The notes below the pieces were generated by a model that was not told the DNA's origin, did not search any database, and saw only the letters and a list, made by a program, of their open reading frames with translations. Of a stretch of 43,787 nt of DNA, positions 25,986-34,400 are shown piece by piece. The translations under genes were made by a program, and so were the position numbers. The DNA comes from a virus (taxonomy: Duplodnaviria; Caudoviricetes): IMG/VR virus record IMGVR_UViG_3300049564_000005, positions 1 to 43,787 of that record; one strand, 5' to 3'. The stretch's first letter is position 1. Every line of letters starts with the position of its first letter.

Positions 25986-28323
25986 TATTGCACCAATTAA
26001 AGGTCTCATCGAACTCACTGATAATTTTACCAGTGAGTTGGGACTGGCTGAAGCTGCACTTGGCAACTTCACAAAGACCAATCAAGAAAGTCTGAAAGCT
26101 GTCAGCATCGCCGCTGGACTGGTTGCAGGTGGTATTACTGCAATCGGTGTAGCGGCGCTTGAACTTGGCAAACGCGGTTCAGAAATCAACGACGTCAACA
26201 CGACGCTTGAGCACTTCGCCGGAGGTACGAAAGAAGCAAAAGCCGATCTTGATGCGCTCGTTGCTGGCACTAAAGGGACCGTTGATAACTTCCAGCTGGC
26301 GTCTGACGCTGCGAAGTTACTGCAAGCGAACGTTCGACTGACAGCAGACGACTTCGGCATCCTCGGACAAGCTGCGTTTGTGCTGCAGAATCGCGGCTTG
26401 GGAGGTACAAAAGAACAACTGGACCTAGTGTCCGATGCGCTCGTGACTGGCAAAACGAAAGCGCTGGCGCACACTCTAGGTGTCATCGAGAACACGCAGG
26501 CTGAAGAACAGTATGCCGAAAAACTGGGGATCACCAAAGATCAACTGTCGGCGACGGGACTTGCGGAAGCGCACCGCATCGAAGTCATGCGGATACTCAA
26601 TGCCGCTGTCAAGGATGCAGGCGTTCAAAATCGCGACTTCGGCGAAGAACTCCAATTTGCGAAGACGCAGGTTACCAACTTCGTTGATGACTTAGCGTCA
26701 GCTGTCGCAAGCAGCAAAGTATTCGCCGCAGGCTTCAAGGCGATTGAAGACGCTGTGGCAAGCGCATTCGAAGGTTCACAAGAGAATGCGATCAAGACCG
26801 TTGTGCATGCGCTTGAACAGGGCGCAATCACCGTGCTCGACTTCGGACAAACGGCTATCACGATGGCACGAGTCTTTGAGGGTGCATGGTATGGAATCAA
26901 GACCGTCATTCTAGGAGTTGAGACAACGGTTGTAGGTTTCGCAGCTGCAGCTGTCGATGCCATCGATCTTGTCGCATCTGCTGGCGCGAAGCTGCATATC
27001 ATCTCGCCCGAAGCTGCCAAAGCTGTCTCTGACGTCAGCGTGCAGATCAATGCGATGACAGCAGACCTTGCGAAGCAGACGTTGGAAGCTGGCAAAGCTG
27101 TCGTCGGACATACAGAGTTCGACAAGACGCTTGACGGCCTTAGCGAGTCGCTGGCAAAGGTCACCGGCTCGATGCGCAGCGCATCAGAAGAGACCGATAA
27201 GAATAGCGACACGACAGATATTGCTTCAAAGAACGCCGCGAAACTTAAGCAGACGCAGGACGAGCTGAACAAGAGCATGATTGATCAGAGCAAGATCACT
27301 GCTGCACTGGTCAAGAGCACGACTGAACTGAACGGGATTTGGAGCGATTACTTCGCGCTGGTTTCAAAAAATACCCAGACGTCGGGGCAAGCCCAGCGTG
27401 CTGAAATCCAAGCGACGTTCGACAAGCAGGTAGCCGCACTTGACGCGCTGGACCCGCTTTACAACGCGAAGTATGATGCGTATCGCAAGATCGCTGACGA
27501 GTCGTTGAAAGCGGTCGGCTCTGACTGGGACAGCGTTAAGGACCAGTCTATCGAAGGCCTGCAAGAACAAGCCGACAAAGCTGAGAAGACCTACGATCAA
27601 ATGGTCAACAGCAGCTTACACTTCACGCGTGACGCGCTCGATGCGCAGCGCGACAAGTGGATTGCTGCGCAGCAAGCTGCTAACGGATGGAGTACCTCTG
27701 TTAAACAGGCGATTCAAGATACTGCTGACAAAGTGAAGATCCTTGATCATGCATGGGTAGACGACGCTGACATCGCGGCAGCGACGATCAACAAAACTAC
27801 CATCATGGTTAAGACGCTCAGCGGCGAGCTGATATCGCTGGCAGAAGCGCAGAAACGACAGCAAGCAGGCGGCACGCAAGATGTGACGTCGCTGAACTTC
27901 GCCCAGATGCTGACCCAGATCATCACCAGCGGAGGCTGGAATCCAAGCGGCGCAGGATCAAACATCGACGTCAACAAAGCGTATGATCTGGCACATCAAG
28001 GATATTCGTTCGCAGAAATTATCAGCATTTTCAACCAGATGAAGACTTCAACTGGTAACCCGAAACTCCCGCCGCCGCAGGGCCCACGTATTCCCGGGTT
28101 CGCGCAGGGAGGTACGGTCGCTGTCAGACTTGGAGAAAACGGTCCAGAGACTGTGCGCATTCCTATCGGTTCGCAAGTCGCGCCGAATGGTACGAGCTTC
28201 GGCGGTGGCCCAACTATCGTGCTCACCTTCAATGTCAATGGGACTGGCGTGCAAGTCGCGCAACAGATCAAGGACGTGATCATGCGTCAACTGAAACAAG
28301 TGCGCCAGTTCGGCGCAGCGTAG
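25978..28323 (+). CDS. Tape measure protein
   Basis: 781 aa, Ala-rich helical; C-terminal PGFAQGG...GENGPE. Confidence 0.9.
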   Translation: MSDIAPIKGLIELTDNFTSELGLAEAALGNFTKTNQESLKAVSIAAGLVAGGITAIGVAALELGKRGSEINDVNTTLEHFAGGTKEAKADLDALVAGTKGTVDNFQLASDAAKLLQANVRLTADDFGILGQAAFVLQNRGLGGTKEQLDLVSDALVTGKTKALAHTLGVIENTQAEEQYAEKLGITKDQLSATGLAEAHRIEVMRILNAAVKDAGVQNRDFGEELQFAKTQVTNFVDDLASAVASSKVFAAGFKAIEDAVASAFEGSQENAIKTVVHALEQGAITVLDFGQTAITMARVFEGAWYGIKTVILGVETTVVGFAAAAVDAIDLVASAGAKLHIISPEAAKAVSDVSVQINAMTADLAKQTLEAGKAVVGHTEFDKTLDGLSESLAKVTGSMRSASEETDKNSDTTDIASKNAAKLKQTQDELNKSMIDQSKITAALVKSTTELNGIWSDYFALVSKNTQTSGQAQRAEIQATFDKQVAALDALDPLYNAKYDAYRKIADESLKAVGSDWDSVKDQSIEGLQEQADKAEKTYDQMVNSSLHFTRDALDAQRDKWIAAQQAANGWSTSVKQAIQDTADKVKILDHAWVDDADIAAATINKTTIMVKTLSGELISLAEAQKRQQAGGTQDVTSLNFAQMLTQIITSGGWNPSGAGSNIDVNKAYDLAHQGYSFAEIISIFNQMKTSTGNPKLPPPQGPRIPGFAQGGTVAVRLGENGPETVRIPIGSQVAPNGTSFGGGPTIVLTFNVNGTGVQVAQQIKDVIMRQLKQVRQFGAA

Positions 28324-28333
28324 GAGACAGGTT

Positions 28334-28894
28334 ATGCTTTACGGACAATCGTTCGGAGAAGTGCTCATCGAAGCGCAGAGCGACGGCCCTACGCTGACAG
28401 CTGCCGCTGCAGCGTCGTGCATCCCGACAGCTTCGAAGTTTCCCCTGCCCGGTCAGTATTTCAGCTGGATCGGCAAGAAGCTGCGCGTTGACATGTCCGG
28501 GCGTGTTAGCACTGTTGTGACGACGCCCGGCACGTTTCGAATTGACATCCGTTTCGGCGGCACTGTCGTATTCGACTCGGGAGCCATCGCGTTAGCGACA
28601 GCTGACGCATACACGAATCAAGGCTGGCGCTTTCATTGCGACTTGATCGCCCGCAGCGTCGGTACTGCGATGTCGTTGTTTCCAGAAGCGTGGTGTGTGC
28701 TGCCGAACATGGCGGGTGTTGCATCGACTCCGCCCAAGGCAATGGGCGTCGCGATGCTTCCGTGGAACACTGCACCTGCTGTCGGCAACACGTTCGACGG
28801 GACAGTCCAGCAAGTCGTGGATGTTTTTTTCACGCAGACTGTTGCCACAGGTTCGGTGACTGTGCACACTTACGAGCTGGTTTCGCCGAACTAA
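28334..28894 (+). CDS. Putative tail-associated virion protein
   Basis: AGGAG RBS; beta-rich; directly after the tape measure gene. Confidence 0.6.
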   Translation: MLYGQSFGEVLIEAQSDGPTLTAAAAASCIPTASKFPLPGQYFSWIGKKLRVDMSGRVSTVVTTPGTFRIDIRFGGTVVFDSGAIALATADAYTNQGWRFHCDLIARSVGTAMSLFPEAWCVLPNMAGVASTPPKAMGVAMLPWNTAPAVGNTFDGTVQQVVDVFFTQTVATGSVTVHTYELVSPN

Positions 28895-28895
28895 G

Positions 28896-29444
28896 ATGAT
28901 CATTCGTCCACTGCCGGGGATTCTTGGAATCCCCGGTAAACATAAAGTCATCAGCGGGCAAGGAAACGGCCCGCTTGTTTCGTCTATAGCTCCTGCAACG
29001 GGATCTATCAAGGGCGGAACAAGCGTGACGATCACCGGGCAGAACTTCGCTGCTGATGGCTTTGGTAACGTCGGTGTCACGTTCGGTGGTAAGTCTGCGA
29101 CAAGCATCGTGCTTGTGAACAGCACCACGATCACATGCGTGACACCGAGTCAAGTATCGACTGGAATCGTTGACGTTGTTGTGTCATGTGGCACGCAAAC
29201 AGCAACGTTGTTCGGCGGGTTCTCGTATTACACGATTACGATTCTCAGTGTTGTCCCAAGCTTTGGTCCGTTCGCTGGAGGTACGAACGTCATGATCAAC
29301 GGGATCGGGTTCTCGCTTGGGTGCACCGTCAGCTTTGACGGTATCCCAGCAACGAACGTGATCTTTATTGACAGTTCGCACATGCGTGCGACGACGCCAA
29401 GTCATTCGGCCGGATTCTCTGACGTTACGGTCACTGAGGCATAA
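28896..29444 (+). CDS. Tail protein with two IPT/TIG domains, the second lacking its last strand
   Basis: P..GS..GGT.VTITG.NF...VTFGG..AT.....T.ITC.TP pattern twice; ends FSDVTVTEA-stop. Confidence 0.85.
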   Translation: MIIRPLPGILGIPGKHKVISGQGNGPLVSSIAPATGSIKGGTSVTITGQNFAADGFGNVGVTFGGKSATSIVLVNSTTITCVTPSQVSTGIVDVVVSCGTQTATLFGGFSYYTITILSVVPSFGPFAGGTNVMINGIGFSLGCTVSFDGIPATNVIFIDSSHMRATTPSHSAGFSDVTVTEA

Positions 29445-30571
29445 TGGCGAACGTCGTTGATACTCAGGTTGGTGTAGACGGCAGCGGCACTGGCACGATT
29501 GCGCTGTCGTCGTTCGCGTCTAATGCGCTTGCTGGCGATGCTATTGTCGTCTCCGTTGTGTGGTTCAATGACACAGCTGGACACATCGGTGACGCTGGCA
29601 ATGCGCCGACTGATAACAAGAGCAACACTTACGTCAAAGTTGGCACGATACAAGGTCCGAATAACACCGGCGGCCTTGCGTATACTCAAGTCTTTTGGCT
29701 AGCTAGCAACGTCGCAGCTGGCGCCACGAACGTCACGCTTCACGGGACTGCTGGTGCTCTGCGTCTTGGCATCGCGAGTCTGTGCACAGCGGTTGCAGTC
29801 TCACCGAATAACGGGGATTATGCTGGAACGAACTTCACATCATTCCTGAGCACAGCGACGTTCCCGCAGACGACAGTTACTCCGCCTGCCAACTCGCTGT
29901 TCTTCAGCTCAATGTTCAGACACGCCATAGGAACATCGACAGCCCCGGGTGGTTGGAGCACGGCAGATCGACAGAACTGGGCGACGAATGCGCATATTGT
30001 GATGTCGCATATTGTCGCTTCAGCGAAACAAACTCCTGTATGGAGCATTCCAGATACTGATTACTGGTCAGGTGGCACGTTCTCGCTTGCACCGCTGCCG
30101 CCGAATCCAACGCCGACTAGTGTTGCCCCAGTGACTGGCGCGACTGTTGGTGGCGAACAAGTCACAGTAACTGGAACGAACTTCACAGCTGACACCACGA
30201 TCACGTTCGGCGGCGTCGCTGCAACAGGTGTGATCTTTGACTCTGTGACGCAAATCCGTTGCACACCTGCAGCGCACGCTGTCGGGTCTGTTGACGTCAT
30301 CACAACCAACTCCTTCGGCACAGGTGCGACACTCGTAAACGGATACACGTATGCTGTGCGTCCAATTCCCGTGAGCATCATGCCGCAATACGGACTGAAT
30401 GGGCATCTTTCAAGTGTGACGATCAAAGGCTCGGGATTCGTGAACGGGCTCACTGTCACGTTCGACGGGACGCCCGCCACGAGCATCGTCGTTGTGGACT
30501 CAAGCACGATTACTTGCACGCCTCCAGCGCATGCCGACGGCACAGCTGTCGTAACGGTGACGAACCCTTAA
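29444..30571 (+). CDS. Tail protein: beta-rich N-terminal domain plus two IPT/TIG domains, the last lacking its final strand
   Basis: AGDAIVVSV..TDNKSNTY N-terminal domain; TIG repeats; ends GTAVVTVTNP-stop. Confidence 0.85.
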   Translation: MANVVDTQVGVDGSGTGTIALSSFASNALAGDAIVVSVVWFNDTAGHIGDAGNAPTDNKSNTYVKVGTIQGPNNTGGLAYTQVFWLASNVAAGATNVTLHGTAGALRLGIASLCTAVAVSPNNGDYAGTNFTSFLSTATFPQTTVTPPANSLFFSSMFRHAIGTSTAPGGWSTADRQNWATNAHIVMSHIVASAKQTPVWSIPDTDYWSGGTFSLAPLPPNPTPTSVAPVTGATVGGEQVTVTGTNFTADTTITFGGVAATGVIFDSVTQIRCTPAAHAVGSVDVITTNSFGTGATLVNGYTYAVRPIPVSIMPQYGLNGHLSSVTIKGSGFVNGLTVTFDGTPATSIVVVDSSTITCTPPAHADGTAVVTVTNP

Positions 30572-30572
30572 C

Positions 30573-33500
30573 ATGGGACTGAGCGGCTCACTCGGCGCTT
30601 CGCAGTTCACATACATCACCGGGAGTGGGAACCCGGCGAGTGCGACTCTGCGTCATGGTTTTCAGTTCACGCTGCTTAATCGTGGACAGGACATTCGACG
30701 TCAGCCCGGCATCACGATTCAAGACGCGCTGAACAATGCGCCGAATACTGCGACGTATCGCATTGACGGCAATGCGCCAGTGCCTCAAATCGGAGAGAAA
30801 GTCGAAATCCGAGATGAGAAAGACAATGATCGCAGACTGTTTGGCGGGACTGTTCTCGACGTCGAACAAATCTATGAAGGGACAACCGATCAATTAGCTT
30901 ACAACGTTACCGCCACAGACTTTACGACGCTTTTTAATAAGCGACGTCCCTACGGCACATATATCAATCAGTCTGTGTCAGACATCGTGATCGACCTTGT
31001 CAGTAAGTATGCGCCCGGGTTTACGACAGCCCACGTGCAGACGAACTTGGCAAAGGTCTCAATCACACTTGACGGGTCACGCGACTTCGTCACTGTGTTA
31101 TCTGATCTTGCGACTGCGATTGGTGGCGGCCACTGGTACATGGACTACGATATGGATTTGCACTTCTTCCATATCGCTCCTCCCGGTGTTGTTCTACCTC
31201 CGACACCGCAGCCCGTCGCAGCCCTGGCGCACATGACTGTCGCCGAGGGCGCGGCTAATCCCGGCTCTGCGCAATACAAGAGCGGGTATTACCTATTCAC
31301 CCACTCGTTTATCTATAGTGACGGAACAGAATCAGCGGTGCAGGGCGTGTCCAACATGCTCTTCGCGTCGGGTCTCAACAGCTTATCCTTCACGAATATT
31401 CCGCTTGGTGTCACACTTGGAACTTCGGTGTGCATTGGGCGACGCATCTATTACAACGACTTCATCAGCGGTTACACTGACGGCGAGAAGATCGAAAAGC
31501 TGAATCAGTTCGTTCAGATCAACGATAACACGACCACTGCGTTTACGACTCAATGGAAAGCGAATGGCGCAAGTGTTGCGACTATCGTATCCCTTGGGTA
31601 TGTGCAGACATTCTCAACGCCGTTAGTAGCGACTCCGGGCACTGGAAGCATTGCTTGGGTGTTGTTGAGTGATCAAGCTGCAGCACTCAACTTAGAAGGC
31701 GGCGTTTCTAACGGTGTTTACGGAAATCCAAATGCCTCGCTAGTTTCTCCACCTGCGTTTCCGGGCGCGGTCTCAACTGCGAACTCGTTACCTGCAGGTT
31801 GGCCTGTCGGCGCGACACTGCATTATAATTTTACAGCTTCAAACGCAAACGGAGAAACGACTCTTGGCGTCGATGCCACTGTAGTTATCACAAACGCAGG
31901 CTTGTTCTTCACCGCACCAATTCCATTACCGACTGGTGCGAACACGATGAACTTGTATCTGTCTTTGGATGGCGTGACATATCGTCGTCATTCAGCAGGG
32001 ATTTTTCCCGGACAGCGTTTCTTACTTTCGTCAACGTTCGCGTTCTGGTCAACAAACCCGACAGCACCAACACAAAATACTGCGATCATCGGCATCTACC
32101 GCGGTTGGGTCGGGTTCAATGGCGTAACACAAATTCCAGAAGGGCAATGGGTTCAGCCGCATGCTGGCGGCTCAAACAATATCGTTTACTTTGCTACGGC
32201 AGACGTCGCTATCGCGCTTGAGAATGCGGCACGTAATCGAGCGCTGCAACCGCCTGTGCGCTCTGCGACGTCGCACCCGTCGCAGCCCTTTGACCCGATC
32301 ACAGGGTTTGTTGAAGGTATTCAGAACTCTTCGTTCTGGAACGGCGGCAAGTTTCAGTTCAAGTATGCGTACCTCTACCGTGATGGTACGGTATCGTTCG
32401 CGTCGAAAGCATCGCCGACGATTGAAAAACTTCGCATCAACGGAGAGGGGATCAAAGGCTTCACGCTGCAGAACATCAACGTCGGGCCGCAAATCGGTAA
32501 TCTTGACGTCGTCGCACGCTTCATTTACTTCTGTCAGGGAAAGTCATCAAGCCCGAATGCTGTCGGTGTATCGGGTAATACGTCACCTTCGAACACTGGT
32601 GTGCCAGTTGGGACGCTATGGCCGATTCCTGACAACGACCCAGATTGGACGGCGCCTTGGGGTGTAATCATCATCCCAGACAACACCTCAACAACGTTGT
32701 CGCAGTTCTCGTTGAACTCGCTTGGCTCAACGTTTACAGATGGCACGTATGGCGGGCTTGTCTGCGGTGCAGGCAATCTGCCGTATGTCAATCCGAATGA
32801 TGACCCGCTGTCAGTAGATCCAATTCCGATGTGGCCGAATCCTGACGGCCCAAGCCTTGAGAACGATACGCCGCCGCAAGACATCACGAACACGAACTCC
32901 TTCTTGCTGTATGACGAGCAGGGAGGTAGTCAAGCGTTCAAAGTCTGGACTGATGGTTCACAGCTGCGCAATCGCGTCATTGTAATCGGGTCGGGCAGTG
33001 TTACAACGCTGACTGCTGCCATCGGCGACTTGAAGCTTTACGTTGCAGACGTCTCTGCCTTTTCGCCACATGGTGGGACGCTCAAGTATGACGACGATGC
33101 AACAGGAACGTTTGTCATCTTAGGTTATGCAGGCGTCGGCGGCGTTGTAGGACAAGCATACGTCATACTTGCGAAAGCGCTTGATCGACTCGTGCCGCAA
33201 GGCGTCAACATCGCGAACTTCTATCAAGCTGACGACATCGACTCCCAGAAATTGCTGTCGAAAGTTGAGCTTGATGCCAACGGCAAAGCGACTGACGGCA
33301 TCCACGAATACACGATTGTTGATACTTCGCTAAAGGCGCAGTTTCAACTGTTCATGCGGGCTCAAGCAGAACTGGAGCTTTTCTCAAAGCCCATCGTGAA
33401 GATCACGTATGCCACACGTGACCCGACGCGCAGCGGACAGACCGTGCACGTTGACTTGGACGACCCGCCGTGCTTCGGTGATTTTCTCGTGCAGAGCGTC

Positions 33501-34400
33501 ACGATTGATCAGATCCATGACGAGTCAGACGCGCTGAACCCGCGCTATACTGTCACAGCGTCGTCTGTGCGTTTCGAGCTAAACGATCTATTACTGCAGA
33601 TCTTGACAGCTCAACAGAACACAGGCAGCGGCAATAGCAGCGCTGGTGTTGTCGCAGCAGCCGGTGGCGGTGGAAGCAGCTCGGGACTTCCCAAGCGCAC
33701 GTCTTCAGTCTGGGTGAACTTCGGCGCTGGTAACGCGCTGCCGATTGGTGTCGGTGCACAAGCATCGTTTGTTAATGCCGTCATCGACTCGACTGAGATA
33801 GCGCCGCGTTCGCATCCTGCCGTGTTCAATGCGGGCACGATTTCAGACGATACGTGGGCGACGCTGACGACATCGACAGCGAACGGTTCAACCGCGAGTG
33901 CGATCAGTGCTGCGCAGTGCATGCTTGAAGACCGAGTGGACTGCTGGTTCGAAGTGCAGACGCCTCAGTCACTCGTTGATGTGTGCTTGTGGGTCGGTCT
34001 GCAAGAACTCTGGACACCTGCACCTCCGGGCGGTTCGAACGTGTCTATGTGCTCGTTCAGATACTCGCCGAATGACGGTGATCAAGGCTGGGTGGCACAG
34101 ATACAGCCGACAGGTGTTGGGCATGCTCGCACGATTCAGTTAGTCGCGCCTATTCAAGCAGGTACGAAATACATTATGCGTCTGCAGACGTTTGTGGGCG
34201 CATCGTTCGACACCGCGACTGTGACGTTTACTGTTGGCAACATCAGTAAGGTAATTCCTTACGATGCGAACTTCCCCGTTGCTGGTGTTGGATACGGCGG
34301 TTCAAATCGCATGCAGCCCGGTGTGGGCGTCTACAATGTTTCGGTCGCAAGCGTCGCAGCTAAGTTCAACTTCCGACGTTTCTCCATCATTACGGACTAA
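30573..34400 (+). CDS. Tail-tip / baseplate-hub host-specificity protein with large insertion
   Basis: 1275 aa; ITIQDALN.APNTA, LFGG.V, WY.DY..DLHFF, D.SQ.RNRV.V.G, R.GQTV.V.L hub-like motifs; C-terminal beta domain. Confidence 0.8.
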   Translation: MGLSGSLGASQFTYITGSGNPASATLRHGFQFTLLNRGQDIRRQPGITIQDALNNAPNTATYRIDGNAPVPQIGEKVEIRDEKDNDRRLFGGTVLDVEQIYEGTTDQLAYNVTATDFTTLFNKRRPYGTYINQSVSDIVIDLVSKYAPGFTTAHVQTNLAKVSITLDGSRDFVTVLSDLATAIGGGHWYMDYDMDLHFFHIAPPGVVLPPTPQPVAALAHMTVAEGAANPGSAQYKSGYYLFTHSFIYSDGTESAVQGVSNMLFASGLNSLSFTNIPLGVTLGTSVCIGRRIYYNDFISGYTDGEKIEKLNQFVQINDNTTTAFTTQWKANGASVATIVSLGYVQTFSTPLVATPGTGSIAWVLLSDQAAALNLEGGVSNGVYGNPNASLVSPPAFPGAVSTANSLPAGWPVGATLHYNFTASNANGETTLGVDATVVITNAGLFFTAPIPLPTGANTMNLYLSLDGVTYRRHSAGIFPGQRFLLSSTFAFWSTNPTAPTQNTAIIGIYRGWVGFNGVTQIPEGQWVQPHAGGSNNIVYFATADVAIALENAARNRALQPPVRSATSHPSQPFDPITGFVEGIQNSSFWNGGKFQFKYAYLYRDGTVSFASKASPTIEKLRINGEGIKGFTLQNINVGPQIGNLDVVARFIYFCQGKSSSPNAVGVSGNTSPSNTGVPVGTLWPIPDNDPDWTAPWGVIIIPDNTSTTLSQFSLNSLGSTFTDGTYGGLVCGAGNLPYVNPNDDPLSVDPIPMWPNPDGPSLENDTPPQDITNTNSFLLYDEQGGSQAFKVWTDGSQLRNRVIVIGSGSVTTLTAAIGDLKLYVADVSAFSPHGGTLKYDDDATGTFVILGYAGVGGVVGQAYVILAKALDRLVPQGVNIANFYQADDIDSQKLLSKVELDANGKATDGIHEYTIVDTSLKAQFQLFMRAQAELELFSKPIVKITYATRDPTRSGQTVHVDLDDPPCFGDFLVQSVTIDQIHDESDALNPRYTVTASSVRFELNDLLLQILTAQQNTGSGNSSAGVVAAAGGGGSSSGLPKRTSSVWVNFGAGNALPIGVGAQASFVNAVIDSTEIAPRSHPAVFNAGTISDDTWATLTTSTANGSTASAISAAQCMLEDRVDCWFEVQTPQSLVDVCLWVGLQELWTPAPPGGSNVSMCSFRYSPNDGDQGWVAQIQPTGVGHARTIQLVAPIQAGTKYIMRLQTFVGASFDTATVTFTVGNISKVIPYDANFPVAGVGYGGSNRMQPGVGVYNVSVASVAAKFNFRRFSIITD

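Follow-up and report, generated by a model that had tools for sequence, protein, structure and literature searches.

Incomplete IPT/TIG domains of two phage tail proteins and their predicted completion by strands of a tail-tip hub-like protein

In the IMG/VR virus record IMGVR_UViG_3300049564_000005 (analyzed over its whole 43,787 bp, "the window"; the record is ~76% complete), two consecutive tail genes, here A and B, each end inside an immunoglobulin (Ig)-like IPT/TIG domain, immediately before its last strand (G), and the protein of the next gene, C, opens with two strands of the missing kind. We consider it likely, from comparative evidence and a structure model, that A and B are tethered in trans to the tail-tip protein C through strand complementation that needs no chaperone. 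Specifically, C residues 22-32 (strand 2) are predicted to slot beside strand F of the last domain of A (TIG2) and residues 1-14 (strand 1) beside strand F of the last domain of B (TIG4), such that both proteins would be held on C with neither a covalent link nor a chaperone. An earlier note on this DNA had proposed that C donates the missing strands in trans; the comparisons and the model favor this, with strand 2 assigned to A and strand 1 to B, as a prediction rather than a demonstration.

The Cut Domains and Their Missing Strands

The reading frames, stops, and peptides listed in the earlier note were all correctly placed, and the features of the three genes are as follows.

28896..29444, + strand: gene A, 182 aa; short Pro/Gly-rich N-terminus, TIG1, and TIG2 without strand G
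28971..29234, + strand: TIG1 of A, complete (G strand at 29196-29228)
29235..29441, + strand: TIG2 of A, strands A-F only; predicted acceptor for strand 2 of C
29444..30571, + strand: gene B, 375 aa; unnamed cargo domain of ~220 aa, TIG3, and TIG4 without strand G
29444..30106, + strand: cargo domain of B; predicted fold resembles unnamed domains (template modeling score, TM, about 0.8)
30107..30358, + strand: TIG3 of B, complete (G strand at 30320-30352)
30359..30568, + strand: TIG4 of B, strands A-F only; predicted acceptor for strand 1 of C
30566..30575, + strand: B/C junction, CCT TAA C ATG, in which a single base separates stop from start; possible +1 shift site, though non-canonical
30573..34400, + strand: gene C, 1275 aa; tail-tip hub-like protein, after the tape measure gene, with weak profile and fold matches
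30573..30614, + strand: orphan strand 1 (C 1-14), G strand of a B-type TIG4; intact in homologue P0128
30615..30635, + strand: 7-aa linker separating the two strands
30636..30668, + strand: orphan strand 2 (C 22-32), G strand of A TIG2, continuing into the hub; assigned from fused homologues, matrix, and model

Protein A ends in FSDVTVTEA, and its TAA (29442-29444) overlaps the ATG of B; protein B ends in AVVTVTNP, and its TAA (30569-30571) is followed by a single base and then the ATG of C at 30573. Both proteins match the Pfam family PF01833 (IPT/TIG) far above its cut-off of 20.9 bits (A at 99.9 bits, B at 73.2 bits, with two stretches in each). By alignment, TIG1 and TIG3 are complete, and the chains of TIG2 and TIG4 break off after strand F, within the F-G loop; neither of the latter has the full IPT/TIG strand set within one chain.

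The two orphan strands were identified by different routes. For strand 2, a G-strand matrix was built leaving out the strands of the window and all hub-adjacent strands, and was run ungapped over the 40,144 11-mers of the window: strand 2 ranked second (16.3 bits), the genuine G strands of the window took ranks 1 and 3, and the next candidate reached 5.5 bits. Strand 1 was identified by homology to an intact domain in P0128, where a complete B-TIG4-type TIG runs into strand 1, the linker, and strand 2. As this TIG is the best non-self match (63%, among 271 alignments) to the last TIG of a B orthologue, strand 1 is the G strand of TIG4.

The hub-like assignment of C expresses a likeness, placed by position together with weak profile and fold matches: Phage_GPD in Pfam (E 4e-4, 20.1 bits, under the cut-off of 30.1), late control D/tail proteins (weakly, by tblastn), and, for the predicted model of a C homologue, a weak fold-search match to a tail chain of a Haloferax virus (E 9e-6). 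Among PDB sequences, C had no match under E 0.14.

Fused Ancestors, Intermediates, and Two-Strand Hubs

Most homologues carry TIG-TIG-hub in one protein, with TIG2 finished by strand 2, and A is homologous to the N-terminal part of this fused tail protein. We compared 183 hub-matching proteins, among which the match begins at a G strand in 134; the remaining 49, mostly distant, have no G strand ahead of the hub. Within the 134, TIG stands in cis with a normal F-G loop in 96, carries an in-frame loop insertion of ~20 aa in 12 (11 of them seen by eye) and one of ~310 aa in a single protein (P0081), and is complete with a spare strand besides in one (P0128). The strand is an orphan in 22, the window's own included; two flagged rows were dropped as false. 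These 22 comprise 12 proteins with two strands, four with one, and six in which the strand follows a complete other Ig domain, and in all 12 two-strand proteins, again with that of the window, the strands start directly after Met. Seven of the 96 fused proteins have an orphan G strand of TIG1 instead, with a DNA-level match at locus L037. Homologues that are always single fused frames would, by the earlier note, have spoken against its idea; split forms recur among the relatives.

P0199, a B orthologue with 42% identity, has its C-terminus at the same residue. The equal length of their longest contigs suggests that P0199 and the two-strand hub P0067 may lie at one locus. A scan of viral contigs for DNA of two-strand hubs gave no match, and a protein search with A returned generic TIG proteins only, although it also missed the split A homologues of our loci and is thus insensitive. 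On a tree of 138 hub sequences, parsimony counted 15 changes for a hub-adjacent split, five for two strands, and two for a TIG1 split; with weak backbone support and no shuffle control, the tree shows the scatter of split forms, not the number of their origins.

These forms outline a possible history in two steps. In the first, B plus its last domain would have been inserted into the F-G loop of TIG2, severing A; in the second, B would later have been severed at the F-G loop of TIG4. Selection would then retain breaks at no other place, since a piece severed at this loop stays attached.

Breaks Recur at One Loop

The position of breaks was tallied at loci L001-L066, which were found with hub or gene U queries (U being the upstream neighbor of A) and hence blind to stops; loci from stop-pattern scans were excluded, as the pattern itself selects the stop. 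A stop falls inside seven of 61 distinct TIG domains, each time at profile positions 72-74 of 85, and in an eighth case (L028) the frame reads on from the same loop into another domain. On the question raised in the earlier note, whether homologous loci keep the stops in place, P0199 keeps the B stop. In unrelated control contigs, which came from single-protein scans, none of 17 TIG domains contained a stop. The seven stops reduce to about four events (L001/L015, L054/L056, L017/L018, and L037), and if breaks were even, the chance of four events in the six-residue loop is, by our arithmetic, near 3 in 100,000—with the caveat that decayed breaks elsewhere are harder to see. A shortage of visible breaks elsewhere is also what selection predicts. 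In the window and in L001, L015, and L028, the domain halves are separated by whole genes, different in each case; an insert is absent from L054 and L056, which show an in-frame TGA followed by ATG.

A TIG alignment proved too variable for scanning. Stop-pattern scans returned 13 and eight stretches. A truncated TIG occurred only in an unrelated P22-like contig (L085, a record 35% complete); of the other stretches, one was an intact TIG with Trp and the rest were chance. On this contig three genes lie between portal and coat (L085:6107-8898; G001), in the order LamG-TIG, a 102-aa gene that opens with a pair of strand-like peptides, and then a third one; all three of the TIG domains end at the same place, before strand G. 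The tandem peptides look duplicated. Single-protein scans found no close relatives of the two-strand gene.

Structure Models

An AlphaFold2 model of a fused homologue (predicted local distance difference test, pLDDT, 87) has a strand at 163-172 directly after F and, in a fold search, matches the IPT domains of Met and plexin. We then modeled A-TIG2, B-TIG4, and C 1-40 as three chains, with only C scored. The complex scored 0.65, against 0.03 for the best of three controls, under a pass mark met by 116 of 157 solved pairs and two of 215 mismatched pairs; runs shared at least 93% of contacts, with partner pLDDT of at least 76. Confidence in the cut domains was 90 with C and 56-59 in the controls. 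Every one of the 25 best pairs lies between A-TIG2 and C 24-32, connecting the F and first strands of A with C in antiparallel register, as homology predicts. The model is evidence of fit, not of binding.

Weighing the Interpretations

Several results count against tethering in trans. Among its 25 best pairs, the complex model has the predicted pairing for A only: groove residues of B and C 1-18 appear in the interface list, yet none of their pairs ranks that high, and B with strand 1 carries no separate score. Passing the mark can itself stem from likeness to intact IPT domains, as it would for any split gene. Strand 1 lies outside the top 12 of the ungapped matrix scan, where a one-residue bulge leaves it with a low score. 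Strand 2 continues at its end into the hub, and distant hubs that lack TIG open with a strand in roughly the same position; hub folding could therefore be what some of strand 2 is retained for. Neither C nor A has a clear Shine-Dalgarno sequence. Finally, the earlier note expected strand number to track the number of cut domains, which holds in the window (two to two) and indirectly for P0199/P0067, the only places where it was verified, and fails in the P22-like contig, where three cut domains face two candidate strands, the second weak (0.3 bits); a further donor strand may lie outside that record.

That the stops are sequencing or assembly errors, products of a changed genetic code, or ends of an intron spliced from RNA is very improbable, and this explanation has been largely refuted. 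The stops were checked in assembled contigs (X1, X2, and X3), with a limit of 31 letters for a contig to count as bridging. Contigs of X1 cross both stops without a gap, though X1 is possibly the source run and alone covers the A stop, which leaves some room for error. The B stop is present in an X3 contig from another study (30539-30692; three substitutions, no gap, exactly at the 31-letter limit), in an X2 contig that reaches only 26 letters beyond the stop and so falls below the limit (30396-30597), and in an orthologue; A-type stops occur in L001 and L015 as well. The in-frame TGA of L054 and L056 might suggest recoding, but their hub frames contain nine and eight TGG codons and no TGA. 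An Rfam scan of 28000-31500 gave no match, and no repeat marks the ends of the insert.

A programmed +1 shift at CCT-TAA, by which B is joined to C, TIG4 is completed in cis, and only A is tethered in trans, is unlikely. A one-base shift does yield an intact domain, a conserved B stop fits a programmed site equally well, and C lacks a strong ribosome binding site. In phage SPP1, moreover, a tail protein is extended to gp17.1* by +1 slippage on the proline codon that precedes its stop (CCCUAA; PMC6316719), and this site shares with the B/C junction a proline codon and TAA ending a tail gene with the next frame at +1. Yet SPP1 slips from CCC to CCU, whereas the B/C codon is CCT and the +1 codon Leu, and here the break falls inside a domain and an in-frame Met heads the downstream piece, as it heads strand 1 in all 12 two-strand hubs. 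Junction geometry at the other split loops varies (in frame in L054/L056, a -1 overlap in L085/L028), and the stop-one base-ATG arrangement also links U to A. A +1 shift also leaves A unexplained: because a whole gene separates A from its strand, no recoding can join A to C, and the frameshift alternative of the earlier note survives for the B/C junction only.

It is also improbable, to a similar degree, that the locus is a relic of nested insertion in which the orphan strands have ceased to interact with the cut domains, with A and B dispensable or attached by other surfaces. The nested insertion suggested in the earlier note does hold as history, given the fused ancestor and the intermediates among the relatives, and the F-G loop, which tolerates in-frame insertions, may simply be the least harmful breakpoint; strand 2, too, may partly serve the hub. 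As decay the idea fares poorly, for the pieces are conserved. Across six homologues mean identity is 0.86 for strand 1, 0.50 for the linker, 0.65 for the N-terminal domain of the hub, and 0.43 for its middle; strand 1, which has no role in the hub, is the best-conserved segment of C. The B stop is retained at 42% identity, none of the seven stops inside TIG domains falls elsewhere in the domain, and none of the 134 hub proteins was found cleanly separated after a complete TIG2, with the G strand left on A. Strain substitutions are mostly synonymous (28 of 30 overall; three of three in TIG4).

The two exchangeable adhesins of the earlier note stay a conjecture: A is the former N-terminal part of C and consists of two TIG domains with no cargo domain, and only B carries cargo. 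We infer a possible adhesin function for this cargo domain, which under tethering in trans would be exposed at the tip of the tail and might aid adsorption. Its predicted fold is shared with phage proteins and with domains of bacterial enzymes, none of them named, and a Pfam search with B 1-220 gave no match.

Comparison with Known Systems

In chaperone-usher pilins the missing strand is the last (G) one. As in these pili (FimA; PMC6615685, in excerpt), an N-terminal extension would here supply the strand missing from the Ig-like fold of another chain, and the antiparallel strand next to F is predicted by our model for A with C 24-32. Differences are the lack of a signal peptide and of a polymer, and the fold family; furthermore, each pilin subunit has both groove and donor strand, whereas A and B have no donor strand and C no groove. 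Scans of 15 and of 22 window proteins, out of 160 open reading frames in the incomplete record, found no chaperone or usher gene. In its working, the proposed arrangement resembles donor-strand complementation, yet it is no chaperone-usher pilin.

The closest precedent comes from the baseplate of Lactococcus phage Tuc2009 (PMC4742702, the portion available), where the crystal structure has a 25-residue hairpin of BppU completing the sheet of the BppA C-terminal domain in a titin-like composite, and BppA carries a carbohydrate-binding module. Shared are the siphophage tail tip, a cargo-bearing accessory protein ending in an incomplete Ig-like domain, and a core baseplate or tail protein that supplies the short missing element, with no chaperone described in that portion of the paper. 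The donor there is a C-terminal beta-hairpin of BppU, here an N-terminal single G strand of a hub-like protein; the composite there is titin-like, here the fold is IPT/TIG, with two tandem docks, fused ancestors, and intermediates; and the Tuc2009 complex was solved as a structure, whereas ours is predicted only. Tuc2009 is a solved phage precedent of the principle, one that the earlier note did not name, and new here are the IPT/TIG fold, the two tandem N-terminal docks, and the recurring splits.

Archaeal cannulae (bioRxiv 10.1101/2024.12.30.630787, in part) likewise have strand complementation without accessory proteins, but they are polymeric, calcium-driven, of the TasA superfamily, and non-viral. 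The excerpt of PMC13370021 does not mention strands. Our literature search for a phage case of IPT/TIG or donor-strand complementation found none, though it missed the Tuc2009 paper too.

Implications

The series from fused gene to loop insertion, one split, and two splits is unusually complete for a natural one, and shows how a single tail protein may become a multi-protein assembly without a new interface. It predicts a route by which accessory host-binding modules are added to or swapped on tail tips, and would explain "truncated" TIG genes that annotation would label broken. The strand/groove pairs are also small (a 70-residue domain and a 14-residue peptide). More tentatively, and with somewhat less than even confidence, we suggest that the F-G loop of IPT/TIG is a general phage plug-and-socket, in which a gene product ending in a TIG without strand G docks on any virion protein displaying one, hubs gather several tandem strands and act as multi-socket adaptors, and unrelated phages (e.g., the P22-like podovirus, in its head-gene region) decorate their particles likewise. 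If this were true, the strand/groove pairs would be natural orthogonal sets of peptide tags and catchers.

Neighboring Genes and Other Observations

The window contains a siphophage-type tail module. Genes for terminase, portal, major head, and connector proteins and for a lambda-like tail tube and tail chaperone were identified, and a tape-measure-like gene is followed by a conserved gene (U) and then by A, B, and C.

28334..28894, + strand: gene U, 186 aa; unnamed phage beta-sandwich and upstream landmark, ahead of the TIG-hub gene in relatives

Searches of Pfam and PHROG with U gave no match. Its family is widespread in phages (unnamed viral Atlas clusters of 92-587 members), and U occupies the usual place of the distal tail protein. 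At the head of A (28896-28970) and of the fused homologues stands a Pro/Gly/Arg-rich peptide of 25-30 aa, possibly a further attachment arm.

At L016 (4365-6800) and L019, the gene two places upstream of the hub encodes a propeller-like protein whose C-terminus is a cut TIG, and U stands in between. The N-terminus of the hub there is long and rich in Gly/Ser and includes a candidate G strand, which in L016 was seen by eye only and lies outside the top six of the matrix.

Insertions of ~20 aa in the TIG2 F-G loop carry F-x-P-x-I-F repeats in P0021, P0026, P0031, P0041, P0046, and P0048, and also in P0057, P0058, P0091, P0104, and P0109; such an insertion might serve to bind a further protein of the virion. 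Seen by eye, the first strand of P0018 and P0024 is similar to the strand that ends the other Ig domain of LLxEDG-type hubs, and these N-termini suggest that the same split may occur in a second Ig family. Lastly, a fibre-like insert gene starting with MADxKIS is paired with a hub bearing a repeated LLxEDG N-terminal motif at L001:4750-5960 and L015:7110-8060, a pairing also listed for P0029, P0084, P0096, P0097, and P0128, and possibly a second docking code.

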